From Mustelus asterias (taxonomy: Eukaryota), in assembly GCF_964213995.1 (NCBI RefSeq), contig NW_027590476.1, forward strand, positions 124,001 to 188,000: a stretch of DNA of 64,000 nt, written 5' to 3'. Below the pieces are notes generated by a model. The model saw nothing but the letters and a program-made list of their open reading frames with translations, had not been told where the DNA came from and did no database searches. The first letter of the stretch is position 1; each line of letters opens with the position of its first letter. Shown here one piece after another: positions 7,661 through 53,664 of the stretch. The position numbers and the translations under genes are program-made.

Positions 7661-8786
7661 ATCTTACAAGGGAAAGATTTGTAGATGCAAAACTCAAAAC
7701 GAACATTTTGGTTTGAGTCACTCAACTATTCATCAACCTTTCAATGTGGAAGGAGAAATGTTTATCTGTGGAAAAGATCTTAAACATCAGTGCAACTGGA
7801 GAAACACCAAGACACACACACACCCGAGTGAAGGTGTTCCAGTGAACTGATTGTGGAAAGAGCTTTAACCAGTTACATCCTGAAAAAACATCACACCATT
7901 CACAGTGGGGAGCAAACACATGTTCTGTATGTGGACGAGGCTTCAACTGATCTCTAGGCTGGAGAGACAGGAAGAGACCCAGACCATGGAGAAACCTTGG
8001 AAATGTGGGGACTGTGGGAAGGGATTCAAGTCTTCTTTCCGGCTGGATATCCATCAACGCATTCACACTGGGGAGAAGCCATTCCTCTGTTCTGTGTGTG
8101 GGAAGGGATTTACCAAGACAACCTACCTGATGTTACACCAGAGAATTCACACTGAGGAGAGGCCCTTCAGCTGCACTCACTGTGGGAAGAGGTTCAACAG
8201 CACATCCAGCCTCGCTACACACCAGCGGATTCACACTGGGGTGAAGCCGTTCACCTGCCCTGTGTGCGGTGAGAGATTCACTCGGTCATCCGGCCTTTGG
8301 ACACATCAGTGAATTCACACCGAGGAGAAACCGTTCAGCTGCATTTCCTGTGGAAAGAGTTTTGGACAGTCATCCACCCTGACTGCTCACCAACGCACTC
8401 ACACCGGGGAGAGACCGTTCAGCTGCTCCGTGTGTGGGAAGAAATTCTCCCAGTCATTCGATCTGGTGAGACACCAGCGACTTCACACCGGGGAGAGACC
8501 ATTCACCTGCTCGGTGTGTGGGAAGGGATTCACTCGGTTATTCACCCTCCAGTCCCACCACCGCACTCACACTCAGGAGAATCCATTCAGCTGCAGTACC
8601 TGTGGAAAGAGTTTCAAGCAGTCATCCAACCTTCTGACTCACCAACGCACTCACTCTGGGGAGAGGCCTTTCACCTGCTCCTTGTGTGGAAAGGCATTCA
8701 CAAGGTCCTCCAGCCTGCTGAGACACCAGCAAATTCATAATAGACTGCAAGGATTGGATTCTGCTTTTAATCACAGCCTGGATTGA
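7661..8786 (+). pseudogene. C2H2 zinc-finger gene A (9 fingers) with an in-frame stop in finger 4
   Basis: Acceptor TTTTTACAG| at 7660; ATG of MEKPWKC at 7986. ORFs 7905..8312 and 8430..8786 are in the same frame, separated only by TGA at 8310-8312 (HQ*IH, likely CGA>TGA). Confidence 0.85.
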
Positions 8787-9494: not shown

Positions 9495-10350
9495 GATAAC
9501 CCGGATAAATGTGTAGTGGTACAACCCGGATAAATGTGTAGTGGGACATTTTGGAACCTGGATAAATGTGTAGTGGTACATTTCGGCAGGTCAAATGGGA
9601 TGAAGGAGTATAATATCAAGGGTAAGACTCTTAGCAGTGTAGAGGATCAGAAATACCTTGGGGTCCGGGTCCATAGGACTCTTAAATCGGCCTCGCAGGT
9701 AGAGGAGGTGGTTAAGAAGGTGTATGGTGTGCTGGCCTTCATCAATCGAGGGATTGAGTTCAGGAGTCGGGAGATAATGATGCAGCTTTATAAGACCCTC
9801 GACAGACCCCACTGAGAGGTCTGTGCTGAGTTCTGGTCGCCTCATTACAGAAAGGATGTAGAAATTATTGAAAAGGTGCAGAGAAGATTAACAAGGATGT
9901 TGCCTGGATTGGGTGGCATGCCTTATGAGGATAGGTTGAGGGAGCTCGGTCTTTTCTCCTTGGAGAGACGAAGGATGAGAGGTGACGTGATAGAGCTGTA
10001 CAAGATGTTGAGAGGTACAGATCGGGTGGATTCTCAGAGGCTTTTTCCCAGGGCTGAAATGGCTGCTACGAGAGGACACAGGTTTAAGGTGCTGGGTAGT
10101 AGGTACATAGGAGATGTCAGGGGTAAGTTTTTCACTCGGAGGGTGGTGGGTGAGTGGAATCGGCTGCCATCAATGGTGGTGGAGGCAAACTCGATAGGGT
10201 CTTTTAAGAGACTCCTGGATGACTACATGGGACTTAATAGGGTTGAGGGTTATAGGTAAGCCTATATATAGGCGTAGGTAGGTAGGGACATGACCGGCGC
10301 AACTTGAGGGCCGAAGGGCTTGTTTGTGCTGCAGTTTTTCTATGTTCTAT
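9495..10350 (+). mobile_element. 5'-truncated CR1 LINE with a triplicated 5' junction motif
   Basis: DKCVVVHFGR, LGLFSLERRRMRGD, FFTRR; (TTCTATG) tail; GGATAAATGTGTAGTGG occurs three times at 9503-9577. Confidence 0.9.
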
Positions 10351-10785
10351 GTCTCATGGTCTTCTGGTATCATAGCTTCCACTTGGCAAAACACTGCGTC
10401 ACATTCAGACATCTGGAAAAGGAAAGGTCTCTGTTCCACTCTGCTGTGATGCGCGCAGTAAACGCGCGTATTTCAGGGGCAGACAGCCGAGCTGCTGCGT
10501 GCCATTCCAACAGAGAAAACGGCTCCTTATTTTCAACGGCACTGATACCTGGGCTGAGGACTGGACTGAGTGAACATATTCACACAGGTTCCATGAATAC
10601 AAACAAAAATTTGCACAAATGAATTTTAAGGTGTCAATTAGACTAACTTGAGCACACAAAGTTGAAGCTTCCTCAAATTATGGTCAGTTGAGTCAGTGAA
10701 GCAGCCGATTATATTTGCAGTGATGTCTGCATTCGAGCTCTTGCTGCTGTTTGAACTGAAGGCGGCTGAATCAAGGATTGCGTTT

Positions 10786-11083
10786 GCCGGGTGTTGTGGC
10801 GCGCACCTGTAATCCCGCTGCTGGGAGGCTGAGGCTGCTGGATTGCTTGAGGTCGGGAGTTCTGGGCTGTTGTTCTCTGTGCCGATCGGGTGTCCACACT
10901 AAGATCAGTATCCGCATGGTGTTCCAAGAGGACTCTGGGAGCACCAGGTGTGCTAAGGAGGGGTGAACCGGCCCAGGTCGGAAACGGAGCAGGTCAAATC
11001 CCCTGTGCTCTTCAGTAGTGGGATAGCACCTGTGAATAGAAGCAGCAGTGCAGCCTGACCAATACAGCGAGACGCTTCCTTTT
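10786..11083 (+). ncRNA. RN7SL: 7SL / SRP RNA gene (divergent variant), copy 1
   Basis: Colinear with vertebrate 7SL from GCCGGG to TTTT, 298 nt. Helix-8 region GGTGAACCGGCCCAGGTCGGAAACGGAGCAGGTCAAA matches the human sequence as recalled; Pol III T4 terminator present. Confidence 0.95.
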
Positions 11084-12322
11084 CTCCACACCTTCAATCG
11101 CAGCAAACAAACTGTTTTGCCGTTCCCATCAATGCAGACAAACCCGATGCCTCTCTGCCTGCCTCCACACTCACTCCCTCTGCTGCCCCTTTCATTCACT
11201 CTCACACCCAATGCTATCACCACAGCAAACTACGCAAGGACACCAAAACCAAGTACACACACTTTTGACCAACCAACTCTCCACCAGCCCTGCACGCTCA
11301 CACGCACCATTCTGCAATTCCCACTTTTACCACTCTCCCCATTCTTTGCCTCCTCAATATCCACCTCACCTTTACTGCTCCCTGCTGCTCCCGGCAGGAA
11401 CTGCACTTTTAAAATCTTCAACTTGCACAATCATGTCAGCCACGGCCACAAGAGGGCGCGAACCTCTTCACCTCCTCCACACTACTCATATCGCGCACAC
11501 ACTTCCCAGCACAACCACCAAACATTCAATCTGTCTCTCGGCTCTCATAACTCCTTCTCGTTTATTTATTCCCTTCTGGCAAATTCTCCACTGTCAACAT
11601 CGAAAGTCTCGAGGCTTTGGACTTGATCTAATGCTGTAAATAAGAGAGTGGGAGAGAAAGAAAGAGAGAGAGAGAAAGAGAGACAGGAAAATGCTCATTG
11701 TAATTTCCAGTTTAATCGCCAAGCCACATTGGCAATTCACAGACACCCCATTGTTCGATGTCCCCTCGACCGAGTCTATTCTCAAAGATAAGACTCGGGG
11801 TGGTGACTGCACCGGAGGGAACGCGCAGAAACCAAGCATTGCGCTTAATAGATTTCACTTCGCAAAAAGTGCGTCAAATTCAGAGATCTGGAAAAGGAAA
11901 GGTCTCTGTTCCACTCTGCTGTGATGCGCGCAGTAACCGTGCGTATTTCAGGGGCAGACAGCCGAGCTGCTGCGTGCCATTCCAACAGAGAAAACGGCTC
12001 CTTATTTTCAACGGCACTGATATCTGGGCTGAGGACTGGACTGAGTCAACATATTCAGACAGGTTCCATGATACAAAGAATAATTCGCACAAATGAATTT
12101 ATGTTGTCAATTCGACTAACTTGAGCATTCAAAGTTGAAGCGTCCTCAAATGATTACCAGTTGAGTCAGTGAAGCAGCCTAGGATATTTGCAGTGATGTC
12201 TGCAGTGGAGCCCTCCTGCTGTTTGAACTGAAGTGGAGATGCCGGCGTTGGACTGGGGTAAACACAGTAAGAAGTTTAACAACACCAGGTTAAAGTCCAA
12301 CAGGTTTATTTGGTAGCAAAAG

Positions 12323-12367
12323 CCACACAAGCTTTCGAGGCTCTGAGCCCCTTCTTCAGGTGAGTGG
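12323..12367 (-). ncRNA. Minimal hammerhead ribozyme motif (left arm of palindrome)
   Basis: Reverse complement of 13285-13329. Confidence 0.7.
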
Positions 12368-13284
12368 GAATTCTGTTCACAAACAGAACTTATAAGACAC
12401 AGACTCAATTTACATGAATAATGGTTGGAATGCGAATACTTACAACTAATCCAGTCTTTAAGAAACAAAACAATGGGAGTGGAGAGAGCATCAAGACAGG
12501 CTAAAAAGATGTGTATTGTCTCCAGACAAGACAGCCAGTGAAACTCTGCAGGTCCACGCAACTGTGGGAGTTACAAATAGTGTGACATAAATTCTGATTC
12601 TAGGATCGCATGATAAAGACTCAGGAGGAAAAAAGCAGAAATATTTATGTGAAATAGTGTGACATAAACCCAATATCCCGGTTGAGGCCGTCCTTGTGTG
12701 TGTGGAACCTGGCTATCAGTTTCTGCTCCGCGACTCTGCGCTGTCGTGTGTCGCGAAGGCCGCCTTGGAGAACGCTTACCCGAATATCAGAGGCCGAATG
12801 CCCGTGACCGCTGAAGTGCTCCCTGTTGGGGAGCACTTCAGCGGTCACGGGCATTCGGCCTCTGATATTCGGGTAAGCGTTCTCCAAGGCGGCCTTCGCG
12901 ACACACGACAGCGCAGAGTCGCGGAGCAGAAACTGATAGCCAGGTTCCACACACACAAGGACGGCCTCAACCGGGATATTGGGTTTATGTCACACTATTT
13001 CACATAAATATTTCTGCTTTTTTCCTCCTGAGTCTTTATCATGCGATCCTAGAATCAGAATTTATGTCACACTATTTGTAACTCCCACAGTTGCGTGGAC
13101 CTGCAGAGTTTCACTGGCTGTCTTGTCTGGAGACAATACACATCTTTTTAGCCTGTCTTGATGCTCTCTCCACTCCCATTGTTTTGTTTCTTAAAGACTG
13201 GATTAGTTGTAAGTATTCGCATTCCAACCATTATTCATGTAAATTGAGTCTGTGTCTTATAAGTTCTGTTTGTGAACAGAATTC

Positions 13285-13329
13285 CCACTCACCTGAAGAA
13301 GGGGCTCAGAGCCTCGAAAGCTTGTGTGG
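13285..13329 (+). ncRNA. Minimal hammerhead ribozyme motif (right arm of palindrome)
   Basis: CAC-CTGAAGA-A-GGGGC-tcaga-GCCTC-GAAA-GC-TT-GTG. Confidence 0.7.
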
Positions 13330-13425
13330 CTTTTGCTACCAAATAAACCTGTTGGACTTTAACCTGGTGTTGTTAAACTTCTTACTGTGTTTGAACTGAA
13401 GGCAGCGGAATCAAGGATGGTGCTG

Positions 13426-13724
13426 GTCGAGTGCTGTAGCGCACCCCTTTAATTCCGCTGCTGGGAGACTGAGGCTGCTGGATTGCTTGAGGTCGGGAGT
13501 TCTGGGCTGTTGTTCTCTGTGCCGATCGGGTGTCCACACTAAGATCAGTATCCGCGTTTGTTTTCCAAGAGGACTCTGGGAGCACTAGGTGTGCTAAGGA
13601 GGGGTGAACCGGCCCAGGTCGGGAACGGAGCAGGTCAAATCCCCGGTGCTTTTCAGTTGTGGGATAGCACCTGTGAATAGAAACAGCAGTGCAGCCTGAC
13701 CAATACAGCGAGACGCATCCTTTT
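13426..13724 (+). pseudogene. RN7SL: 7SL copy 2, degenerate 5' Alu domain, upstream region split by the PLE insertion
   Basis: Same body as copy 1, but the 5' end reads GTCGAGTGCTGTAGCGCACCCCTTT and the helix-8 loop GGAAAC is GGGAAC; PLE is inserted ~25-40 bp upstream. Confidence 0.85.
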
Positions 13725-16105
13725 CTCCACACCTTCAATCACAGCCAACAAACTTCTTTGCCATTCCCAGACAAACCCGATGCCTCTCTGGCTGCCTCCA
13801 CACTCACTCCCTCTGCTGCCCCTTTCATTCACTCTCACATCCAATGCTATCACCACATCAATCTACGCAAGTAAACCAAAACATGTACACACACTTTTGA
13901 CCAACCAACTCTCCACCAGCTCTGCACGCTCACAAGCACCATTCTGCAATTCCCACTTGCCTCACTCACTGCCCATTCTTTGCCTCCTCAATATCCACCT
14001 CACATTTACCGCTCCCTGCTGCTCACGGCAGAAACTACACTTTTAAAATGTTCAACTTGCAAAATCATGTCAGCCACGGCCACAAGAGAGCGCGAAACTC
14101 TTCACCTCTTCCTCACATCTCATATCGCGCACATACTTCCCAGCACATCCAACAAGCATTCAAGCTGCCTCTCGGCTCTCATATCTCCTTCTCCTTTTTT
14201 CATTCCCTCCTGACAATTCCTCCACTGTCAACGTCGAAAGCCTCGACGCTCATGACTTAATCTAATGCTGTAAATGAGAGAGTGGGAGAGAAAGAAAGGG
14301 AGAGAGAGAAAGACAGCAAAATGTTCATTGTAATTTCAATTTCAGCGTTGATCGCGAACCCACTTTGGCAATTCACCGACCTTCATTGTTCAATGTCCCC
14401 TCTACTGAGTCTATCCTAAGGAGGAGGAAACATGTCAAGGGGAGGCCGAGGCATCCACGGCTGACGAGGGAAGTCAAGGACAAGATAAAAGCAAAAGAAA
14501 AAGAATACAAAGTGGCGAGGATTAGTGGGAAGCTGGAGGATTGGGATTTTTAAAAATGCGAGCAGAGGACAACTATAGAAGCAATAAGGGGTGGAAAGAT
14601 GAAATATGATTGCAAGGTAGGCAGTAATATAAAAGAAGACAGGAAGAGTTTTTTTCAATATATAATTGATAAGAGAGAGGCAAAAATAGACATTGGATCA
14701 CGATACAATGAGGCTGGAGAAGTAACAATAGGAAACAAAGAAATGGCAGATGGACTGAATCGTTACTTTGCATCAGTCCTCACGGTGGAAGACACCAGGG
14801 GGATGCCAGAGCTCCAGGAGAATCAAGGGGAACAGGTGGCTGCAGTGGCCATCACTAAGGAGAAGGTTCTGGGGAAACTGAAAGGTCTGAAGGTGGATAA
14901 ATCACCTGGACTGGATGGACTACACGCCAGGATTCTAAGAGAGATAACTGAGGAAATTGTGGAGGCATTGGCAGTGATCTTTCAGGAATCACAGAGGACT
15001 GGAAAGTAGCGAATGTAACACCGCTGTTTAAGAAGGGAGGGTGGCAGGAAATGTGAAATTAGAGGCCAGTGAGCCTGACTTCAGTCATTGGCAAGATTAT
15101 AGAGTCAATTATGAAAGATGAGATTGCAGAATACTTGGAAGTGCATGATAAAATAGGACTGAGTCAGCATGGCTTGGTCAAGGGGTGGCCATGTCTGACA
15201 AATCTCTTAGCATTCTGTGAGGAGATGACAAGGAAGTTCGATGAAGGAGAACCAGTGGACGTGATTTATTTCGATTCCCAGAAGGCCTTTGGCAATGTGC
15301 CGCATAGGAGACTGTTCAATCTGTTAGGAGCACATAGTTCTAAGCTTAAGATCCTGGCATGGATAGAGGATTGGCTGATTGGCAGGAGGCAGAGTGTGGG
15401 GATAAAGGGGTCCTTTTCAGGATGGCAGCCGTTGACTAGCGGTTTGCTTCAGGGGTCGGTGCTGGGACCACAACTTTTCACAATATACATTAACGTTTTG
15501 GAAGAAGGAACTGAAGGCACTGTTGCTAAGTTTGCAGATGATACAAAGATATGCAGAGGGACAGGTAGTATTGAGGAAGCAGGGGGCTTCAGAAGGACCT
15601 GAACAGGTTAGAAGAGTGGGCAAAGAAGTGGCAGATGGTGTATAATGTGGAAAAGTGTGAGGTTATGCACTTTGGAAGGAGGAATGGAGGCACAGACTAT
15701 GTTCTAACTGGGGAAATGCTTAGGAAATCAGAAACACAAAGGGGCTTGGGAGTGCTTGTTCTCAAGGTTAACATGCAGATTTAGTCGGCAGTCAGGAAGG
15801 CAAATGCAATGCTAGCATTCATGTCGAGAGGGCTAGAATACAATAGCAGGGATGTATTTCTGAGGCTGCATAATACCCCATTTGGAGTATTGTGAGCAGT
15901 TTTGGGCCCCGTATCTAAGGAAGGATGTGCTGGCCTTGGAAAGGGTCCAGAGGAGGTTCACAAGAATGATCCCCAGAATGAAGAGCTTGTCGTATGAGGA
16001 ACGGGTGAGGACTCTGGCTCTGTACTCGTTGGAGTTTAGAAGGAAGAGGGGGAAACCTGCAGGATACTGCAAGGCCTGGATAGAGTGGACATGAAGAGGA
16101 TGTTT

Positions 16106-17452
16106 TGATTTTGATTTGATTTGATTTATTATTCTCACATCTATTAACGTACAGTGAAAAGTATTGTTTTTTGCACGCTATACAGACAAAACACACCATT
16201 CATGGAGAAGGAAAACAAGAGAGTGCAGAATGTAGTGTTACAGTCATAGCTAGGGTGCAGAGAAAGTTCAACTTAATGCAAGGTAAGTCCATTCAAAAGT
16301 CTGACAGCAGCAGGGAAGAAGCTGTTCTTGAGTCGGTTGGAACAGGACGTTCAATGTTTGACACTTTTTCCTGAAGGAAGAAGGTGGAAGAGAGAATGTC
16401 CGGGGTACATGGGGTCCTTAGTTATGCTGGCTGCTTTGCCGAGGCAGTGGGAAGTGCAGACAGAGTCAATGATGGGAGGCTGGTTTGCGTGATGGATTGG
16501 GCTACATTCACGATTTTTTGTAGTTTCTTGCGGTCTTGGGCAGAGCAGGAGCCATACCAAGCTGTGATACAACTAGAAAGAATGCTTGCTATGGTGCACC
16601 TGTAAAAGTTGGTGAGAGGCTTAGCTGACATCCAAATTTCCTTAGTCTTCTGAGAAAGTAGAGGCATTGGTGCTCTTTCTGAACAATAGTGTCGGCATGG
16701 GGGGGACCAGGACAGGTTGTTGGTGATCTGGACACCTAAAAACTTGAAGCTCACGACCTTTTCTATTTCATTCCTGTTGATGTAGGCAGTAAAAAGTCTC
16801 ACAAAGCCAGGTTAAATTCCAACAGGTTTATTTGGTAGCAAATACCATAAGCAAATACCAAATAAACCTGTTGGACTTTAACCTGGTGTTGTGAGGCTTC
16901 TTACTGTGTTCACCCCAGTCCAACGCCGGCATCTCCACATCATGATGTAGGCAGGGGCATGTTCTCCTTTACACTTCCTGAAGTTGATGACAATCTCCTT
17001 CGTTTTGTTGACATGGAGGGAGAGATTATTGTTGCCGCACCATTTCACCAGATTCTCTATCTCATTCCTGTACTCTGTCTCATCATTGTTTGAGATCCAA
17101 CCCACTATGGTGCTGTCGTCAGCAAACTTGAAAATCAAATTGGAGGGGAATTTGGCCGTACAGTCATAGGTATCATAAGGAGTATAGTAAGGGGCTGACA
17201 ACACAGCCTTGTGGGGCACCGGTGTTGAGGATGACCGTGGAGGAAGTGTTGTTGCCTATCCTTACTGATTATGGTCTGTGAGTTAGGTAGTGCAGGATCC
17301 AATCACAGAGCGAGGTGCCGAGGCCCAGGCCACGGAGTTTGGGGATGTGTTTCGTGGGAATAATAGTGTTGAAGACTGAGCTGTAGTCAATAAATAGGAG
17401 TCTGACAGAGGTGTCCTTGTTATCTACGTGTTCCAGCGCTGAGTGCAGTGTT
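16106..17452 (-). mobile_element. Rex1/Babar-like LINE 3' fragment
   Basis: [49 protein letters not shown]; (ATCAA)n tail; 7-bp TSD GATGTTT at 16099-16105 and 17453-17459. Confidence 0.8.
16790..16942. mobile_element. Miniature fold-back PLE terminus (153 bp)
   Basis: Inverted copies of the PLE 3' end plus tail CCCCAGTCCAACGCCGGCATCTCCACATCA; 12-bp TSD TGATGTAGGCAG. Confidence 0.85.
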
Positions 17453-18184
17453 GATGTTTCCACTAGTAGGAAAAACTAGGACCAGAGGGCACAACCTCAG
17501 GCTAAAGGGACAATCATTTGAAACAGATATGAGGAGGAATTTCTTCAGCCAGAGTGTGGTGAATCTGTGGAACTCTGGGCCGCAGAAAGGTGTGGAGGCC
17601 AGATCATTGAGTGTCATTAAGGCAGGGATAGATAGGTTCTTGATTAATGAGGGGATCAGGGGTTTGGGGAAAAGGCAGGAGAATGAGGATGAGAAAAATA
17701 TCAGCCATGATTAAATGGCGGAGCAGACTCGATGGGCCGAGTGGCAAAATTCTGCTCCTATGTCTCATGTTCTTCTGGTAACATAGCTTCCACTTGGCAA
17801 AACACTGCCTCACATTCAGAGATCTGGAAAAGGAAAGGTCTCTGTTCCACTCTGCTGTGATGCGCGCAGTAAACGTGTGTATTTCAGGGGCAGACAACCG
17901 AGCTGCTGCGTGCCATTCCAACAAAGAAAACGGCTCCTTATTTTCAACGGCACTGATACCTGGGCTGAGGACGGGACTGAGTGAATATATTCAGACAGGT
18001 TCCATGAATACAAACAAAAATTCGCACAAATAAATTTTAAGAGGTCAATTAGACTAACTTGAGCACACAAAGTTGAAGCTTCCTCAAATTATGGTCAGTT
18101 GATTCAGTGAAGCAGTGAAGTCAGTCTGCATTCGAGCTCTTGCTGCTGTTTGAACTGAAGGCGGCTGAATCAAGGATTGCGTTT

Positions 18185-18482
18185 GCCGGGTGCTGTGGCG
18201 CGCACCTGTAATCCCGCTGCTGGGAGGCTGAGGCTGCTGGATTGCTTGAGGTCGGGAGTTCTGGGCTGTTGTTCTCTGTGCCGATCGGGTGTCCACACTA
18301 AGATCAGTATCCACATGGTGTTCCAAAAGGACTCTGGAAGCACCAGGTGTGCTAAGGAGGGGCGAACCAGCCCAGGTCGGAAACGGAGCAGGTCAAATCC
18401 CCTGTGCTCTTCGACAGTGGGATAGCACCTGTGAATAGAAACAACAGTGCCGCCTGACCAATACAGCGAGACGCTTCCTTTT
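18185..18482 (+). ncRNA. RN7SL: 7SL / SRP RNA gene variant, copy 3
   Basis: Full length with T4 terminator; a few substitutions relative to copy 1 (GGCGAACCAGCC at the helix-8 base, helix-6 changes). Confidence 0.9.
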
Positions 18483-19177
18483 CTCCACACCTTCAATCGC
18501 AGCAAACAAAATATTTTGCCGTTCCCCTCAATACAGACAAACCCGATGCCTCTCTGCCTGCCTCCACACTCACTCCCTCTGCTGCCCCTTTCATTCACTC
18601 TCACATCCAATGCCATCACCACATCAATCTACGCAAGTAAACCAAAACATGGACACACACCTTTGACCAACCAACTCTCCACCAGCACTGCACGCTCACC
18701 CGCACCATTCTCCAATCCCCACTTTCCTCACTCTCCCCATTCTTTGCCTCCTCAATATCCACCTCACTTTTACTGCTCCCTGCTGCTCACGGCAGAAACT
18801 GCACTTTTAAAATCTTCAACTTGCACAATCATGTCAGCCACGGCCACAAGAGAGCGCGAACCTCTTCACCTCTTCCCCACATCTCATATCGCGCACATAC
18901 TTCCCAGCACATCCAACAAGCATTCAAGCTGCCTCTCGGCTCTCATATCTCCTTCTCCTTTATTCATTCCCTCCTGACAATTTCTCCACTGTCAATGTCG
19001 AAAGTCTAGACGCTTATGACTTAATCTAATGCTGTAAATGAGAGAGTGGGAGAGAAAGAAAGAGAGAGAGAGAAAGACAGCAAAATGTTCGTTGTAATTT
19101 CAAGTTCAGCGTTGATCGCTAACCCACTTTGGCAATTCACCGACCTTCATTGTTCAATGTCCCCGCGACCGAGTCTA

Positions 19178-22100
19178 TCCCAAGGAGGCGGAAACATGCC
19201 AAGGGGAGGACGAGGCATCCACGGCTGACGATGGAAGTCAAGGACAACATAAAAGCAAAAGAAAAAGAATACAAAGTGGCGAGGATTAGTGGGAAGCTGG
19301 AGGATTGGGATTTTTTTAAAATGCGAGCAGAGTACAACTCTGAAAGCAATAGGGCCGGGCGGGGGGGGGGGGGGGGGGGGGGGAGATGAAATAAGAGTGC
19401 AAGGTAGCCAGTAATATAAAAGAAGACAGGAAGAGTTTTTTTTCAATCCATAAAAGATAAGAGAGAGGCAAAAATAGACATTGGATCACGATAAAATGAG
19501 GCTGGAGAAGTAACAATAGGAAATAAAGAAATGGCAGATGAACTGAATCGTAACTTTGCATCAGTCCTCAAGGTGGAAGACACCAGGGGGATGCCAGAGC
19601 TCCAGGAGAATCAGGGGGAACAGGTGACTGCAGTGGCCATCACTAAGGAGAAGGTTCTGGGGAAACTGAAAGGTCTAAAGGTGGATAAATCACCTGGACT
19701 GGATGGACTACACGCCAGGATTCTAAAAATGATAACTGAGGAAATTTTGGAGGCATTGGCAGTGATCTTTCAGGAATGACAGAGGACTGGAAAGTAGCGA
19801 ATGTAACACCGCTGTTTAAGAAGTTCGGGAGGCAGGAAATGTGAAATTAGAGGCCAGTGAGCCTGACTTCGGTCATTGGCAAGATTATAGAGTCAATTAT
19901 GAAAGATGAGATTGCAGAATACTTGGAAGTGCATGATAAAATAGGACTGAGTCAGCATGGCTTGGTCAAGGGGTGGTCATGTCGGACAAATCTCTTACAA
20001 TTCTTTGAGGAGATAACAAGGAAGTAAGAGAAAGGAGAACCAGTGGACGTGATTTATTTCGATTCCCAGAAGGCCTTTGGCAATGTGCCGCATAGGAGAC
20101 TGTTCAATCTGTTAGGAGCACATAGTTCTAAGCTTAAGATCCTGGCATGGATAGAGGATTGGCTGATTGGCAGGAGGCAGAGTGTGGGGATAAAGGGGTC
20201 CTTTTCAGGATGGCAGCCGGTGACTAGCGGTGTGCTTCAGGGGTCGGTGCTGGGACCACAACTTTTCACAATATACATTAATGTTTTGGAAGAAGGAACT
20301 GAAGGCACTGTTGCTAAGTTTGCAGATGATACAAAGATATGCAGAGGGACAGGTAGTATTGAGGAAGCAGGGGGCTTCAGAAGGACCTGAACAGGTTAGG
20401 AGAGTGGGCAAAGAAGTGACAGATGGAGTATAATGTGGAAAAGTGTGAGGTTATGCACTTTGGAAGGAGAAATGGAGGCACAGACTATGTTCTAACTGGG
20501 GAAATGCTTAGGAAATCAGAAACACAAAGGGGCTTGGGAGTGCTTGCTCTCAAGGTTAACATGCAGATTTAGTCGGCAGTCAGGAAGGCAAATGCAATGC
20601 TAGCATTCATGTCGAGAGGGCTAGAATACAATAGCAGGGATGTATTTCTGAGGCTGCATAATACCCCATTTGGAGTATTGTGAGCAGTTTTGGGCCTCGT
20701 ATCTAAGGAAGGATGTGCTGGCCTTGGAAAGGGTCCAGAGGAGGTTCACAGGAATGATCCCCAGAATGAAGAGCTTGTCGTATGAGGAACGGGTGAGGAC
20801 TCTGGCTCTGTACTCGTTGGAGTTTAGAAGGAAGAGGGGGAAACCTGCAGGATACTGCGAGGCCTGGATAGAGTGGACGTGAAGAGGACGTTTTGATTTT
20901 GATTTGATTTGATTTATTATTCTCACATCTATTAACGTACAGTGAAAAGTATTGTTTTTTGCGCGCTATACAGACAAAACACACCATTCATGGAGAAGGA
21001 AAACAAGAGAGTGCAGAATGTAGTGTTACAGTCATAGCTAGGGTGCAGAGAAAGTTCAACTTAATGCAAGGTAAGTCCATTCAAAAGTCTGACAGCAGCA
21101 GGGAAGAAGCTGTTCTTGAGTCGGTTGGTACAGGACGTTCAACGTTTGACACTTTTTCCTGAAGGAAGAAGGTGGAAGAGAGAATGTCCGGGGTACATGG
21201 GGTCCTTAGGTATGCTGGCTGCTTTGCCGAGGCAGTGGGAAGTGCAGACAGAGTCAATGATGGGAGGCTGGTTTGCGTGATGGATTGGGCTACATTCACG
21301 ATTTTTTGTAGTTTCTTGCGGTCTTGGGCAGAGCAGGAGCCATACCAAGCTGTGATACAACTAGAAAGAATGCTTGCTATGGTGCACCTGTAAAAGTTGG
21401 TGAGAGGCATAGCTGACATCCAAATTTCCTTAGTCTTCTGAGAAAGTAGAGGCATTGGTGCTCTTTCTGAACAATAGTGTCGGCATGGGGGGGACCAGGA
21501 CAGGTTGTTGGTGATCTGGACACCTAAAAACTTGAAGCTCACGACCTTTTCTATTTCGTTCCTGTTGATGTAGGCAGCAAAAAGTCTCACAAAGCCAGGT
21601 TAAATTCCAACAGGTTTATTTGGTAGCAAATACCATAAGCAAATACCAAATAAACCTGTTGGACTTTAACCTGGTGTTGTGAGGCTTCTTACTGTGTTCA
21701 CCCCAGTCCAACGCCGGCATCTCCACATCATGATGTAGGCAGGGGCATGTTCTCCTTTACACTTCCTGAAGATGATGACAATCTCCTTCGTTTTGTTGAC
21801 ATTGAGGGAGAGATTATTGTTGCCGCACCATTTCACCAGATTCTCTATCTCATTCCTGTACTCTGTCTCATCATTGTTTGAGATCCAACCCACTACGGTG
21901 CTGTCGTCAGCAAACTTGAAAATCAAATTGGAGGGGAATTTGGCCACACAGTCATTGGTATCATAAGGAGTATAGTAAGGGGCTGACAACACAGCCTTGT
22001 GGGGCACCGGTGTTGAGGATGACCGTGGAGGAAGTGTTGTTGCCTATCCTTACTGATTATGGTCTGTGAGTTAGGAAGTGCAGGATCCAATCACAGAGCG

Positions 22101-22558
22101 AGGTGCCGAGGCCCAGGCCACGGAGTTTGGGGATGTGTTTCGTGGGAATAATAGTGTTGAAGACTGAGCTGTAGTCAATAAATAGGAGTCTGACAGAGGT
22201 GTCCTTGTTATCTAGGTGTTCCAGCGCTGAGTGCAGTGTTGATGTTTCCACTAGTAGGAAAAACTAGGACCAGAGGGTACAACCTCAGGCTAAAGGGACA
22301 ATCATTTGAAACAGAGATGAGGAGGAATTTCTTCAGCCAGAGTGTGGTGAATCTGTGGAACTCTGGGCCGCAGAAAGGTGTGGAGGCCAGATCATTGAGT
22401 GTCACTAAGGCAGGGATAGATATGTTCTTGATTAATGAGGGGATCAGGGGTTTGGGGAAAAGGCAGGAGAATGAGGATGAGAAAAATTTCAGCCATGATT
22501 AAATGGCGGAGCAGACTCGATGGGCCGAGTGGCAAAATTCTGCTCCTATGTCTCATGG
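19178..22558 (+). mobile_element. Duplicate of the CR1/Rex1/mini-PLE composite (copy 2)
   Basis: Near-identical to 14415-17770 with the same nested junctions (Rex1 ~20894-22240, mini-PLE 21578-21730). Confidence 0.92.
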
Positions 22559-22810
22559 TCTTCTGGTATCATAGCGACCACTTGGCAAACAACTGCGTCA
22601 CATTCAGAGATCTGGAAAAGGAAAGGTCTCTGTTCCACTCTGCTGTGATGCGCGCAGTAAACGTGTGTATTTCAGGGGCAGACAGCCGAGCTGTTGCGTG
22701 CCATTCCAACAGAGAAAACGGCTCCTTATTTTCAACGGCATTGATACCTGGGCTGAGGACTGGACTCAGTGAACATATTCAGACAGGTTCCATGAATACA
22801 AACAAAAATT

Positions 22811-24092
22811 CAAAGACTATTTCCTCGGGTGGATGGAGCTATTACAAGGGGGCATAACTATAGGGTTCATGGTGGGAGATATAGGAAGGATATCAGAGGT
22901 AGGTTCTTTACGCAGAGAGTGGTTGGGGTGTGGAATGGACTGCCTGCAGTGATAGTGGAGTCAGACACTTTAGGAACATTTAAGCGGTTATTGGATAGGC
23001 ACATGGAGCACACCAGGATGATAGGGAGTGGGATAGCTTGATATTGGTTTCAGATAAAGCTCGGCACAACATGTCGGAAGTTGTTGGAAAAGATTCTTAG
23101 AGATAGGATGTATGCGCATTTAGAAAGGAATAAACTCATTAACGATAGTCAGCATGGTTTTGTGAGAGGGAGGTCATGCCTCACTAACCTGGTGGAGTTT
23201 TTTGAAGAAGTGACCAAAATGGTTGACGAGGGAAGGGATGTCGTCTATATGGACTTTAGTAAAGCGTTTGACAAAGTCCCTCATGGTTGGCTGGTGAAAA
23301 AGGTTGGATCTCATGGGATAAAGGGGGAGGTGGCTAGATGGGTGGAGAACTGGCTTGGTCACAGAAGACAGAGGGTGGTAGTGGAAGGGTCTTTTTCCGG
23401 CTGGAGGCCTGTGACTAGTGGTGTTCCGCAGGGCTCTGTATTGGGACCTCTGCTGTTTGTGATTTATATAAACGATCTGGAAGAAGGTGTAACTGGGGTG
23501 ATCAGTAAGTTTGCAGACGACACAAAATTGGCAGGACTCGCAGATAGTGAGGAGCATTGTCAGAAGCTACAGAAGGATATAGATAGGCTGGAAATTTGGG
23601 CAAAGAAATAGCAGATGGAGTTCAATCCTGATCAATGCGAAGTGATGCATTTTGGTAGAAATAATGTAGGGAGGAGCTATACGATAAATGGCAGAACCAT
23701 AAAGGGTGTAGATACGCAGAGGGACCTGGGTGTGCAAGTCCACAGATCCTTGAAAGTGACGTCACAGGTGGAGAAGGCGGTGAAGAAGGCATATGGCATG
23801 CTTGCCTTTATAGGACGGGGCATAGAGTATAAAAGTTGGGGTCTGATGTTGCAGATGTATAGAACGTTGGTTCGGCCGCATCTGGAATACTGCGTCCAGT
23901 TCTTGTCGCCACACTACCAGAAGGATGTGGAGGCTTTGGAGAGAGTACAGAGGAGGTTTACCAGGATGTTACCTGGTATGGAGGGGCTTAGTTATGAGGA
24001 GAGATTGGGGAAACTGGGGTTGTTCTCCCTGGAAAGACGGAGGATGAGGGGAGACTTAATAGAGTTGTATAAAGTTATGAAAGGCATAGATA
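22811..24092 (+). mobile_element. Two abutting CR1 fragments
   Basis: A 3' fragment at 22811-23070, then RT core [22 protein letters not shown] at 23071-24092 with an internal stop at 23609-23611. Confidence 0.88.
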
Positions 24093-48105: not shown

Positions 48106-48498
48106 TCCGGCCTCTGGAGGGTGCGCTCTCCCCGGGGGGAGGGAGGAAGAGAGGACAGGGAGTGACTGGAGGAGAGGGGGGGGGGCGAAGGCGTTTGGAC
48201 TGTCTCTTTTCCATCTGCAGTGGGGGGGGGTGAAGGCCTTTTCCTAATTCCCCTACCCACTACTGCTGCCTCCGGGACCGGCATCCCCTCCCCTTTTTCC
48301 CTCCTGACTGGGGCACCGGCCTTGTGCCTCATCTCCCTCCTGCTCCTCCAACCTCCTCTCTCCCTCTCTCGCTCCGGGGAGAGAGCACCTACACCCTTCC
48401 CCGCCTACCCCACCCTGCCTTATCTTCCCCATCCCACATACGCCCTGCCGTGCATCTGGGCAGTCTCGGGGTGGGTGTAGCACTTCCCCTGATCACTA

Positions 48499-50600
48499 TG
48501 GCGACATCACCAGCGTCGCCGGTGGCAGGGCCTTCTCGGCCCACCTATGCGGGCGTGGCGGCTGCCAGAGCCCCCGCCGCTCCCAAGGCCCTGCCGCCAT
48601 TCTCTTTAATCACGCGGCAGCTCGGGGTGAAGTGCTACGCCCACCCCGACATGTCTATCGAGGCCTGCGTCAAGGCAATGGCTGGGGTTGTCGGCCCCTC
48701 AGCCATTGTCGCGGCCTCTAAGATGTACGGCCGGGCTGTATTCTTCCTGAAGGCCGAGCGGGCGGTTCGCCTCGCCCTGGAAAAGGGGCTCACGGTGGGC
48801 GGGACGTTCCTGGCGGTGGACCCATTGGAGGCCACCGCCCACAAGATAGTAATATCGAACGTCCCGCCCTTCCTACCGAGTGAGCTCCTCCTCCCCCACC
48901 TCCATCTACTGGGGGAGGTCAGGTCCGGGGTGCAGCCGATCCCGCTCGGCCTTCGGGACCCCTCCCTCCGCCACATATACTCCTTCCGGCGCCAGGTTTT
49001 TGTCCGCCTGGCCCGGGAGGAGGAACTGGAGGGAGGGTTCAATGTCCCCCACGAGGGGACCACGTACCGGGTCTTTTGGTCCGCGGACGGTGTGCGGTGC
49101 CATGCCTGTAAGGAGGCGGGGCACGTGAGGAAAAACTGCCCCGTCTCCAAGGCCGCCGACCACCAACCCAAGGCGGCCGCAGCTGGCACCGCAGCCCCCT
49201 CTCCCCCCAAGCGAGTACCATCTGCCCCCCCGCGAGGGGAGGCCACGCCGGCAGCAGCTGCCACCTCAGCTGCCGGCGGGGGGGGAGCGGAGCCCCCGCG
49301 CGGCCAAAAGGCCCAGAAGGGACCTACAAAAAAGAAGGGGGGTACCGGAACCCCGGCCCCCAGGGAAAACACCCCAACCACCCCGGCAGCCGGCTCGGGG
49401 ACCGCCTCAGTCTCCACCTGCGCCCCCCCCCCACCACCACCACCACCACCATCTGCCGGGCCCGTGGGCTCTCCGGGGCCTAGTGCTGGGTCCGGCGCCC
49501 GGGATCATGGGCCCGAGCATGGGGGGGTAAGCGACCCCGAGCCGGCAAAACTGGCGACGCCGCCACCTCGGGGGGAAGTGACGGGAGAGCAGGGGGGGCG
49601 CGGCAAGGCGAAGAGGGGCGGAGGGCGAGGGGCCTCGCCTGCCCGAGGGCAGGTTAACAAAAAGAGGCGGGGCCCCTCGGGCACCGTAGAGTTCGAGGTC
49701 TGCGTGCCCCTCCCCCCTTGTGAGTCATCTCCTGCCGTGCCCCCACCTGTCTTTGTGCCTTGTCCCGCGAAAAAAGGGGGCAAGGCACCCTGCAAATCCA
49801 AGCATGTGTTGCCTCAGTCCCCCGGCGAGGAGTCTCCGGGGCCGGGTGGCAGCGGGGCCCCCACGGCTCCGTTCCACCCGGCCGGTTACAACCCGGAGTT
49901 CTTCTTCAGTCTGTCGGGGGACTGGGGCGACACTCCAATGTTCATGTCCTCGTGCGGCGGCGGCGAAGAGACGATCCACTCGTCCTCTCCGTCCCGACCT
50001 TGGACGCTGGACATCCCCAACCTCAGTCCGAAGGATACACCGGACCTGGGGGGTGTCCAAGCGTCTGGGGCGGGGGGGGCGGCTGGGCCGCCGTCGCACG
50101 GGGGCCCGCAATCCGGGAAAGGTGAGCCCGGGGGGAACCCCTCCTCCACCGATCCTGGGGGTGGGATCGGGGAGGGGCTAGGGCTAGTTGGTGGCTCCGT
50201 GCCGCCCGCCGTACGTCCTGCGGCGGGGGACTCGGAGTCGAGGGGCGACCGCCCTGAGGAGGTCAGCGGCTCGGTGGAGGGCACGGGGACACTTTCAGAG
50301 TCTGCCCAGAGCGAGGCGGGGGACTCCCTCGTGCCCCCCACCGAGTCGTCCCTCATCCCCTCCAAGGACCTCAGGGTCTTTATCCGTAGCCATTCCGGTC
50401 GCTCCGACATAATCCGGCTAGCCCTCGGCCGCTGGCCGGACCTGGCACGGCTCGTCCGGTCCGTGAAGGCATGCTCGCATGCCTCCGCGGGCCTGGAGAA
50501 AATAGAGCGGCGCTGGGTACTGCGGTTCCTCCACAGGCTCGAAAAGGTGGGGGGTGGACTGGTGAGAATTGCGCCAGCGCCCCCCCACACACCTAGTTAA
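48499..50600 (+). CDS. Tx1 ORF1 protein (nucleic-acid-binding region, CCHC knuckle, long P/G/A-rich tail)
   Basis: MATSP.. start; IVAASKM..VFFL, ISNVPPF, SFRRQV; CHACKEAGHVRKNC. Confidence 0.88.
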
Positions 50601-50628
50601 GTGGTGACGGTGGCACAAAGCTGCTGAC

Positions 50629-53600
50629 ATGAAGGTGACCATAGCCAGCCTCAACATCAACGGCAGCAGTGAGCCACACCGCAGGTTCCAGAACTTCTCG
50701 GTCCTCTGTGACGGGAAGTATGCGGTGTGTTTCCTGCAGGAAACCCACACCGTTCCGGGAGACGAAGCCCAATGGCTCCTGGAGTGGCAAGGGGGGGTCT
50801 ACATGAGCCACCTCACGCTCGCTTCTTGCGGGGTGGCTATCTTGTTGGCCCCGCGTTATAAGCCGGAGATCTTGGGGGTCAAGGAGCCGGTGCCAGGCCG
50901 GTTGCTGCACTTGACGGTCCGTGAGGGGGGCGTGGTCATTCACTTGCTGAATGTCTACGCCCCGACCGCCGGACCGCAGCAAACGACTTTCTACGAGAAA
51001 GTGTCCGCTCACATCGACACCATCGCGGGGGGCGAATGCATTATCCTCGGGGGAGATTTCAACTGCATCCTCGAGGCACGGGACCGCACCAGCCCCTGGC
51101 TGCGCACCCCGGCGGTGGTGAAGTTGCGGGACCTGATCGGGTCCCACGACTTGGTGGACGTCTGGAGACATCTCCATCCTGGCTCCAGCGCCTTCACTTT
51201 CGTGAGGCCTGGAGTCGGAGCGTCCAGGCTCGACCGCCTTTACATTTCGAAGGCGCACGTGTCCGGCGTGTCCTCGGTCTCCATGCGGCCGGTGTCGAGC
51301 ACGGACCACAGCCTGGTGTGGGCGGACTTTGCGCCGTCTCGCATCCGGCGGGGGTCCGCGTACTGGCACTTTAACAACACGCTGCTGGAGGACGAGCGCT
51401 TCCTGGACTCGTTCCGTCGATTCTGGGCCGGCTGGAGAAGGAAGCGGGGAGGCTTCCCCTCCTTGAGGCTCTGGTGGGATGTGGGCAAGACTCACGTCCG
51501 TACCTTCTGTCAGGGGTACGCGAGGGGGTCGACAAAGAGGCGGAAATCCAGGCTCGAGGAGTTGGAGAAGGAGGTGCTCGACCTGGAGGCACGTCTCAGT
51601 CGGCCTGACGCGGACCCGGCCCTGCGTTCGGAGTACAGGGAGAAGAAGGACGCGCTGCGGGACCTGCAGCTTGCCAGGTCTCGCGGCGCGTACGTGAGGT
51701 CGCGGCTCCAGTTCCGGGTGGACCTGGACCGCGGCTCCCCCTTCTTCTACTCGCTGGAAAGAGGGCGGGCTAACCGTCAGCAGCTCCTTACGCTGCTGGC
51801 CGACGACGGTTCCCCCGTCTCGGATCCGGAGGGCATCCGGGCCATTGCCCGGGAGTATTACACCTCGCTCTTCTCTCCGGATCCGTCCAGCGAGGATGCC
51901 CGCAGACTTCTGTGGGAGGACCTGCCGCAGGTCAGCCCGGAGGGCGTCGGCAGGCTCGAGGCCCCTACCACCATGGCCGAGCTGACCGGCGCCCTAAATG
52001 GCCTCAGCCGGGGCAAGGCCCCTGGGCTGGACGGGCTGACAGTAGAGTTCTTCAGGGCGTTCTGGGACGTCCTGGGGAGCAACTACGCGGGGGTCCTGGG
52101 GGAGAGCGTCGCTACCGGGGAGATGCCCCTTTCGTGGCGCAGGGCCGTCATTGCCCTGCTGCCCAAGAAGGGGGATCTCCACCTGCTCAAGAACTGGCGC
52201 CCGGTCTCCCTCCTCAGCACGGATTATAAAATCTTTGCCAGGGCTGTGGCTTCACGCCTTGGATCTGTGCTGGACCACTTGATCCACCCTGACCAGTCCT
52301 ACACGGTCCCGGGCCGTTGCATACATGACAATCTCCACCTGGTCCGGGACCTAATCCATCACACCCAGAGGGCTGGTCTGTCGGGCGCCTTCTTGTCATT
52401 AGATCAGGAGAAGGCGTTCGACAGGGTGGAGCACGAGTATTTACTCGGGACTCTGCGGGCATTCGGGTTCGGGACGCATTTTGTCGCCCGGATCCGATTA
52501 CTGTACTCTGCCGCAGAGTGTCTGATTAAGGTTAACGGGTCCCTGACGGCGCCCCTTCGCTTCGGGAGAGGAGTACGGCAGGGCTGCCCCTTGTCCGGCC
52601 AACTGTATTCCGTATGCGTGGAGCCATTCCTGCGCCTCTTGCGGAGGAGGTTGTCAGGTTTGGTCCTGCGCGGACCGGACGTAGGGGTGGTCCTGTCAGC
52701 TTACGCCGACGACGTGCTCCTCATGTTCACGGACCCGGCTGACCTGCGGAGGATGCGAGAATGCCAGGCGGTGTACTCCGCCGCGTCCTCCGCCAGGATC
52801 AACTGGGCCAAGTGCTCCGGACTCCTTGTCGGTCCTTGGGAGACGGACCCCCTCCCGGAGGAGCTCAGGCCTTTCACCTGGAGCAGGACCGACCTCCTCT
52901 ACTTGGGGGCCCATCTCTGCCCAGCCGAGGAATCCTGGCCGGCGAACTGGCGGGAGCTGGAGGCCAAAGTCTCCGCCCGCCTGAGTCGCTGGACAGGACT
53001 GCTCCGAGTGCTGTCCTACGGGGCGCGAGCTCGCGTCATAAACCAGCTGGTCGCCTCCATGCTGTGGTACCGGCTGGTCCCTTTGACCCCTCCCCCTGGC
53101 TTTGTCACCGATATCCAGAGAACCCTCGTGCGGTTCTTCTGGGGCAATCGACTGCACTGGGTCCCTGCTGCGGTCCTGTATCTCCCGCTTGAGGAGGGCG
53201 GACAAGGTCTGGTGTGCCTCCGCACTCAGATAGCGACCTTCCGCCTCCAGGCCCTGCAGAGGTACCTTTACGTTGAGCCCCCTCCACAGTGGTGTGCCAT
53301 GGCGACGTATTTCTTCCGCCAGTGGCACGGCCTCAATTATGACGTGCAGCTCCTGCATATCGAACTGGGGCGTGCTTCGACCGCCCTGCAGGAGTTGCCC
53401 GTCTTTTACCAGGACCTCCTCACTGTCTGGAACAAGGTCGCCTCGCGACGCAGCTCTCCCCCGTCAGGAGTAGCGGCTCTCGTGCGAGAGCCGCTGCTCA
53501 GGAATCCGCTCCTCCAGCCGTATAACTTCAGGTGGCTGGCGGAGAGGGGGGCTGTGGACGCCGGGGTGACCAGAATCGGGGACGTGCTCGATGGCGGAGG

Positions 53601-53664
53601 AGCGGGCTGGATGAGTCCCCGCGCGCTCCGTCCGGCGCGCGGCCAAAGCCATCCTAGACCTTAG
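50629..53664 (+). CDS. Tx1 ORF2 (AP endonuclease + RT), open for 1011 aa then frameshifted
   Basis: SLNING, LQETH, GGDFN, SRLDR, TDH; KNWRPVSLL, DQEKAFD, QGCPLSG, YADD. ORF2-like sequence continues in other frames to ~53962. Confidence 0.92.
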   Translation: MKVTIASLNINGSSEPHRRFQNFSVLCDGKYAVCFLQETHTVPGDEAQWLLEWQGGVYMSHLTLASCGVAILLAPRYKPEILGVKEPVPGRLLHLTVREGGVVIHLLNVYAPTAGPQQTTFYEKVSAHIDTIAGGECIILGGDFNCILEARDRTSPWLRTPAVVKLRDLIGSHDLVDVWRHLHPGSSAFTFVRPGVGASRLDRLYISKAHVSGVSSVSMRPVSSTDHSLVWADFAPSRIRRGSAYWHFNNTLLEDERFLDSFRRFWAGWRRKRGGFPSLRLWWDVGKTHVRTFCQGYARGSTKRRKSRLEELEKEVLDLEARLSRPDADPALRSEYREKKDALRDLQLARSRGAYVRSRLQFRVDLDRGSPFFYSLERGRANRQQLLTLLADDGSPVSDPEGIRAIAREYYTSLFSPDPSSEDARRLLWEDLPQVSPEGVGRLEAPTTMAELTGALNGLSRGKAPGLDGLTVEFFRAFWDVLGSNYAGVLGESVATGEMPLSWRRAVIALLPKKGDLHLLKNWRPVSLLSTDYKIFARAVASRLGSVLDHLIHPDQSYTVPGRCIHDNLHLVRDLIHHTQRAGLSGAFLSLDQEKAFDRVEHEYLLGTLRAFGFGTHFVARIRLLYSAAECLIKVNGSLTAPLRFGRGVRQGCPLSGQLYSVCVEPFLRLLRRRLSGLVLRGPDVGVVLSAYADDVLLMFTDPADLRRMRECQAVYSAASSARINWAKCSGLLVGPWETDPLPEELRPFTWSRTDLLYLGAHLCPAEESWPANWRELEAKVSARLSRWTGLLRVLSYGARARVINQLVASMLWYRLVPLTPPPGFVTDIQRTLVRFFWGNRLHWVPAAVLYLPLEEGGQGLVCLRTQIATFRLQALQRYLYVEPPPQWCAMATYFFRQWHGLNYDVQLLHIELGRASTALQELPVFYQDLLTVWNKVASRRSSPPSGVAALVREPLLRNPLLQPYNFRWLAERGAVDAGVTRIGDVLDGGGAGWMSPRALRPARGQSHPRP

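Follow-up and report, generated by a model that had tools for sequence, protein, structure and literature searches.

The stretch analysed here (hereafter the window) comprises 64,000 nucleotides of the elasmobranch Mustelus asterias (assembly GCF_964213995.1, contig NW_027590476.1, positions 124,001 to 188,000 of the forward strand), and carries genes for 7SL RNA, the RNA of the signal recognition particle (SRP). Scored against the Rfam model of the metazoan SRP RNA (RF00017, Metazoa_SRP; cut-off 70 bits), the window contains three full-length genes (249.9, 198 and 222.4 bits; E <= 1e-52 for all three), each terminated by a run of four T residues (T4). They belong to what I call class A, which, as judged from the genome sequence, is a real, structure-selected and amplified 7SL class, SRP RNA-like by anatomy.

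The 7SL locus

The original prediction described a tandem array of a divergent but structure-preserving 7SL variant with T4 terminators and shared flanking spacer. The terminators are there at all three genes, and self-comparison of the window confirms a basic unit of 1.47 kb made of about 0.44 kb of upstream flank, the gene and about 0.69 kb of spacer. As for the array, the three full-length genes are real, but the term credits them with more order than they show: they are spaced by 2.64 and 4.76 kb with debris of long interspersed nuclear elements (LINEs) between them, and copies 2 and 3 break base pairs. The features are as follows.

10786..11083, + strand: class A 7SL gene, copy 1; passes 11 of 11 hallmark tests (see below); T4 at 11080-11083
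13426..13724, + strand: class A 7SL gene, copy 2, degenerate; 7 of the 97 class pairs broken
18185..18482, + strand: class A 7SL gene, copy 3; 96% identity to copy 1; 5 of the 97 class pairs broken; T4 at 18479-18482
10347..10785, + strand: shared upstream flank of unit 1; TGAAG at -29
11084..11779, + strand: shared C/A-rich downstream spacer of the 1.47-kb unit (self-comparison)
11848..12233, + strand: upstream flank of unit 2, split from its gene; 91% identical to 10372-10761
12260..13392, no strand: near-perfect palindrome of repeat DNA in the unit 2 flank (99.6%, 1.13 kb)
13380..18023, + strand: 4.7-kb unit of gene, spacer, LINE debris and next upstream flank; duplicated at 18138-22811 (95.6%)
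17758..18184, + strand: upstream flank of unit 3; the word at -65 resembling a cAMP-response element (CRE) is lost
18483..19178, + strand: downstream spacer of unit 3 (self-comparison)
22546..22811, + strand: upstream flank of a fourth unit, interrupted by LINE-like DNA before any gene (self-comparison)
8055..8728, + strand: C2H2 zinc-finger repeat array with an 84-bp period, in the duplicated block carrying the cluster

The upstream flank of unit 1 has a degenerate CRE-like word at -65 and none near -50. Copy 2 retains only 46 bp of adjoining upstream flank, the remainder being severed by the palindrome, and has lost both the tertiary bases and the UGU motif of its Alu domain; it is likely a pseudogene, to judge from these losses. 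The palindrome, which was not seen whole in the other fetched loci, is either a young fold-back or an assembly error.

The remaining DNA of the window consists of C2H2 zinc-finger arrays and LINEs. Among the latter, positions 48234-53664 hold an apparently open element with two open reading frames, one ORF1-like (788 aa) and one encoding endonuclease and reverse transcriptase (1018 aa). Of 21 matches to a LINE protein from the window, the four with names all come from rays or sharks. A minisatellite with a 36-bp period, of about 4 kb, is represented in the window at 3-596 and is common to it and to contig C71 within the duplicated block.

Three classes of 7SL RNA in the genome

Throughout the 3.68-Gb genome, searches together with fetched loci recover at least 91 full-length class A copies, which form 42 clusters of 1-6 members distributed over 29 contigs; this figure is a lower bound, one search alone giving 141 candidates, and some scaffolds may be redundant. 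Two further classes are present, namely class B, with two genes on C9, and class C, with two genes on C5, which excludes the alternative that the window's sequence is the only 7SL type of the species. No fourth, more canonical 7SL was found in the genome searches, one of which scored 25 of 58308 candidates only. Pairwise identities are 79.5% (A-B), 78.9% (A-C) and 82.9% (B-C), the best Rfam scores reach 252 (A), 256 (C) and 262 bits (B), and in a tree of 20 sequences class A splits from B and C together with a bootstrap of 100. The original prediction expected two clades, a few canonical loci and many arrayed variants; the disproportion is as expected, yet the well-separated clades are three.

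Identity to the class majority runs from 94 to 99% among class A copies, which spread over a deep tree. In 88 of the 91 the upstream flank shares at least 363 of 440 bases, and no flank homology was seen between class A loci and those of B or C. Since both flanks are shared and both the S domain and the terminator are kept, the cluster copies are duplicates made at the DNA level, and not retrocopies, as had been proposed; neither the absence of shared flanks nor the target-site duplications expected of retropseudogenes and short interspersed nuclear elements (SINEs) characterise them.

The class C genes (one at L033:1501-1799) lie 1.3 Mb apart and have CRE-like upstream words; the apical loop of helix 8 is longer by one inserted base in this class, of which three retrocopies are known here.

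Fold and hallmarks of class A

Changes in base pairs were scored on the Rfam pairing, with the same substitutions scattered at random as the expectation. The differences from B to A include 7 double changes versus 1.6 expected (P 0.0006), and lose 10 pairs versus 22.3 expected. Likewise, the 33 changes found in A only make 3 double changes versus 0.48 expected (P 0.01) and lose 6 pairs versus 12.6 (P 0.002). Among 11 sequences, 16 of 121 pairs changed on both sides, and covariation is 0.181 versus at most 0.076 for slid structures, the kinship of the sequences inflating this shuffle control. Compensatory change, first noticed against human 7SL, is thus borne out against the genome's own classes B and C.

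SRP19 binds the GNAR loop of helix 6 and exposes its third adenine for pairing with the GNRA loop of helix 8 (excerpt of PMC4615810). The helix-6 loop is GGAA in classes B and C; it is GGAC, as the original prediction had read it, in 84 of the 91 class A copies, and GNAR in none, while 88 copies retain the adenine in third position. Archaea have natural loops that depart from GNAR (excerpt of PMC2905702), so the loop marks class A as a variant without excluding it from SRP RNA. The helix-8 loop is GNRA in 91 of 91 copies, varying only at N, where three alleles occur; the SRP54 motif of that helix equals that of class B in 81 copies, including copy 1, whose helix 8 the original prediction had called unchanged against human 7SL. 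With positions taken from human SRP structures, the UGU motif and the loop-loop tertiary bases of the Alu domain are each found in 85 copies (copies 1 and 3 among them, copy 2 not), and T4 in 89.

Probable spread through zinc-finger duplications

Class A copies mostly sit inside zinc-finger segmental duplications: each of the four dispersed regions examined has its clusters in duplicated blocks, amid zinc-finger arrays. A case in point is the pair C444 and C71, sharing more than 20 kb at 95-99%, with one 13-kb stretch at 98.6%. The C9 region has no zinc-finger array and holds the same units at 90-94%; an origin of class A on C9 is plausible, although the tree, being unrooted, does not show the C9 copies as the root. 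Within 150 kb, the only other RNA genes found beside class A clusters were two tRNAs.

In six class A copies, a shared LINE-like sequence interrupts the gene after about nt 110; these truncations are one event, spread by duplication.

That the high count is mostly assembly redundancy (uncollapsed haplotypes among unplaced scaffolds inflating a small family) is very improbable. Some clusters are indeed near-identical (C71 twice, C761 and C2246), and the 13-kb stretch of C444 could be read in the same way; yet the copies spread over 94-99% identity to the class majority in a deep tree, and six of them lie on C9, a sequence of chromosome scale, and seven on C71, which measures 20 Mb.

Class B, its neighbour and the promoters

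The +1 position of the first class B gene (C9:108.61 Mb) is separated by 202 bp (L031:1299-1501) from the ATG of a divergently transcribed rps13 gene, which has open exons and intronic U14 small nucleolar RNAs (snoRNAs). Pfam supports one of its two exons, and weakly (E 9e-5, below the cut-off), the name resting otherwise on peptide motifs that I take to be those of rps13 and on the U14 snoRNAs. The head-to-head region is a CpG island (observed/expected CpG 0.85), and the whole block is duplicated 17.8 kb away, where the second class B gene stands beside a damaged rps13 copy with U14 snoRNAs. Six full class A genes lie within 40 kb of this locus on the opposite strand.

Mammalian 7SL promoters carry a CRE at -51/-44 and a TATA-like box at -31/-24 (excerpt of PMC7279448). 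CRE-like words stand upstream of class B at -67 and -51, and classes B and C have one near -50 or -42; the sole such word of class A is degenerate and at -65, the site near -50 being absent. TGAAG is found near -30 in all classes (A -29, B -30, C -31). Taken together, the CpG island, the rps13 linkage and the CRE-like sites suggest that class B is likely the housekeeping 7SL gene.

A genome search for EMC10, the neighbour expected from zebrafish synteny, found nothing, its control being silent too. A search for synteny with rps29 gave three S14-family matches, none of which has a 7SL within 1.5 kb. None of the papers listed in a literature search indicated a promoter shared by RN7SL1 and RPS29. 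One S14-family match, on the small contig C2133, is strong and far above the other two, and possibly belongs to a bacterial contaminant.

By gene number alone (at least 91 versus 2 and 2) class A might be regarded as the main ubiquitous 7SL, with B and C as minor forms, and its Rfam scores come close to theirs. I consider this improbable, for it is class B that has the CpG island, the rps13 linkage, the CRE-like sites, a GNAR loop, the better fold and at least as many retrocopies as class A, whose copies are under little constraint (see below).

Retrocopies as signs of transcription

A class A copy without flanks (C7:135779104) begins at +1, agrees with class A at 97.6% over a length of 249 bases and bears a 12-bp target-site duplication; it indicates past germline transcription of class A, as far as such a sequence trace can. 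Two older A-like fragments lie on C1 (92%) and C9 (88%). The same 16-mer probe yields 3 retrocopies of A, 4 of B and 1 of C, and a further search directed at B, with no equivalent for A, adds 4 of B and 2 of C; since all three classes have left retrocopies, all three were likely transcribed in the germline. Two pattern matches, on C8 and C16, were dropped as chance.

Four loci hold chimeric retrocopies, in which a full 7SL of class B or C runs straight into one and the same tRNA-like SINE, a structure that points to template switching. Two further retrocopies, an old one of class A and one of class C, to judge by eye, occupy apparently the same insertion site in the same repeat, each with its target duplicated.

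Class A as a putative germline-type SRP RNA

The reading that I favour, at roughly one chance in two, takes class A as a third kind of SRP RNA gene whose fold is preserved and which would supply 7SL of a germline or oocyte type, alongside class B as the likely housekeeping form; class A is likely the elasmobranch counterpart of the maternal SRP RNA of zebrafish. In favour of this stand the class structure and copy counts, the selection on the fold, the hallmarks kept, the retrocopy from +1, the housekeeping traits of class B, the zebrafish precedent and the two classes of RNase P RNA. A duplicate of the ancestral gene would have diverged under selection and been tandemly amplified, probably on C9; the array would then have been carried into zinc-finger duplications, which multiplied the copies. 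RNA polymerase III (Pol III) would transcribe class A from a weaker promoter without the CRE-like site near -50, and I propose that, for this reason, transcription would occur mostly where Pol III factors are abundant. Oocyte-type 5S genes are likewise active where these factors are abundant. Since it retains the tertiary bases of the Alu domain, the adenine of helix 6 and the GNRA loop of helix 8, class A RNA would assemble a working SRP, the GGAC loop at most weakening SRP19 binding. A high copy number would relax selection on each copy, so that about half of the copies are decaying.

A number of observations weigh against too strong a reading of this kind. First, all 11 hallmark tests are passed by 39 of the 91 copies, including copy 1 and neither copy 2 nor copy 3. 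Second, the predicted fold of class A is less firm than those of B and C, the folding z of copy 1 being -0.8 versus -2.3 and -2.2, and the mean pairing probability of the model pairs 0.53 versus 0.76 and 0.89. Third, the helix-4 loop, said to be 2 nt shorter, is no mark of the variant, since class A aligns gap-free there to the Rfam model and its length is common to all three classes. Fourth, no second intact SRP19 was seen in the genome, in a search that returned two copies only and missed the parent gene; these two, on C3 and C2, are intronless and decayed-looking. Fifth, class A is not dominant by retrocopies, having 3 versus 4 and 1 despite 45 times more genes. Sixth, 5S and U4 RNA (47 of 141698 and 42 of 232592 candidates scored) showed one class each, with 0-1 differences among 25 loci and 0-8 among the top 5 loci, respectively; and the divergent 5S classes of fishes do not match the oocyte and somatic types (excerpt of PMC3123226).

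Present-day constraint weighs in the same direction. With 4.8% of non-homologous sequence masked and changes counted on a tree of the 91 copies, non-CpG events in the gene number 296, versus 276 expected from the flanks (ratio 1.07), and the better conservation of the gene suggested by raw diversity vanished under this treatment. Alleles that keep pairing are in weak excess only (39 of 100 non-CpG versus 30% expected, P 0.03). Class A evolves by birth and death, which fits a redundant working family and a dying one alike. Of the proposed amplified second class, then, an amplified class beside others stands; the classes are three, the clusters small and scattered, and the current constraint little.

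The foremost competing explanation, which I regard as less probable than a germline-type supply, is that the copy number is a by-product of expanding zinc-finger duplications, and that a once-functional class A is now largely or wholly silent and decaying. A gene rate equal to the flank rate, at least one hallmark failed by 52 of the 91 copies, and the weaker folding would all be expected from it; so would the carriage of clusters by duplications that exceed 20 kb and include zinc-finger arrays, and the propagation of truncated copies along with the rest. It is harder to reconcile with the young retrocopy from +1, which points to recent germline transcription, with a GNRA loop in every copy despite three alleles at N, and with the excess, however weak, of pair-keeping alleles.

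A broader proposal, which is doubtful at present, would be that elasmobranchs have three SRP RNA classes about 20% apart, of which class A builds a germline-specific, non-GNAR SRP within a dual translation system to which a second RNase P RNA would belong; this system would either go back to the ancestor of jawed vertebrates or have evolved in parallel with that of zebrafish, and would spread with zinc-finger clusters. Dual SRP RNA is reported for zebrafish in one preprint; a second, far more divergent lineage would test the generality of germline-type translation RNAs in vertebrates, and a divergence of 20% lets ordinary RNA-seq assign reads to class. Moreover, class A would allow the GNAR rule of helix 6 for SRP19 binding to be tested on a natural variant, and illustrates how zinc-finger duplications can spread a Pol III gene family; were its copies silent, it would merely exemplify birth-and-death evolution.

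Comparison with known systems

Class A resembles the metazoan SRP RNA of RF00017 in its full-length match, Alu domain, helices 5, 6 and 8, and T4, and differs in having GGAC instead of GNAR, in belonging to one of three classes about 20% apart, and in its at least 91 copies.

Retropseudogenes of 7SL and SINEs derived from it, such as Alu and B1, are a further point of comparison. This genome has retrocopies of all three classes as well; class A clusters differ from these in sharing both flanks and in retaining the terminator together with the S domain.

The literature searched, whose coverage left out most subscription papers, yielded nothing on distinct SRP RNA classes in cartilaginous fishes, and sharks are not mentioned in the excerpt of bioRxiv 10.1101/2024.08.29.610041.

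The original prediction invoked arrays of oocyte-type 5S and tRNA genes. With oocyte-type 5S, as cited for Xenopus, or the dual 5S of fishes, class A shares amplification of a Pol III gene class and birth-and-death evolution (excerpt of PMC3123226); it forms no homogenised tandem array, however, and 5S itself showed one class among 25 loci here.

The closer precedent is the clustered maternal-type SRP RNA of zebrafish (bioRxiv 10.1101/869651), where 67 maternal-type genes form three clusters on chromosome 11, a single somatic gene lies 448 bp from emc10, a third is unexpressed, and the divergence is 7%; RNase P RNA is dual there too (same preprint). In M. asterias, RNase P RNA likewise falls into two classes, 82% identical, with loci on C4 and C1, the class on C1 having several retrocopies fused to a tRNA-like SINE. 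The differences concern (i) divergence, about 20% here and thus some three times larger, (ii) arrangement, in 42 small clusters on 29 contigs and not in three on one chromosome, and (iii) expression of the classes, shown in zebrafish, whereas class A is known from its genes. The likeness lies in the anatomy of the system: in both species numerous clustered copies, which share about 91-94% identity or more with one another, stand beside solitary genes of other sequence, one of them close to where a housekeeping gene begins (emc10 in zebrafish, rps13 in M. asterias), and in both there is a third class.

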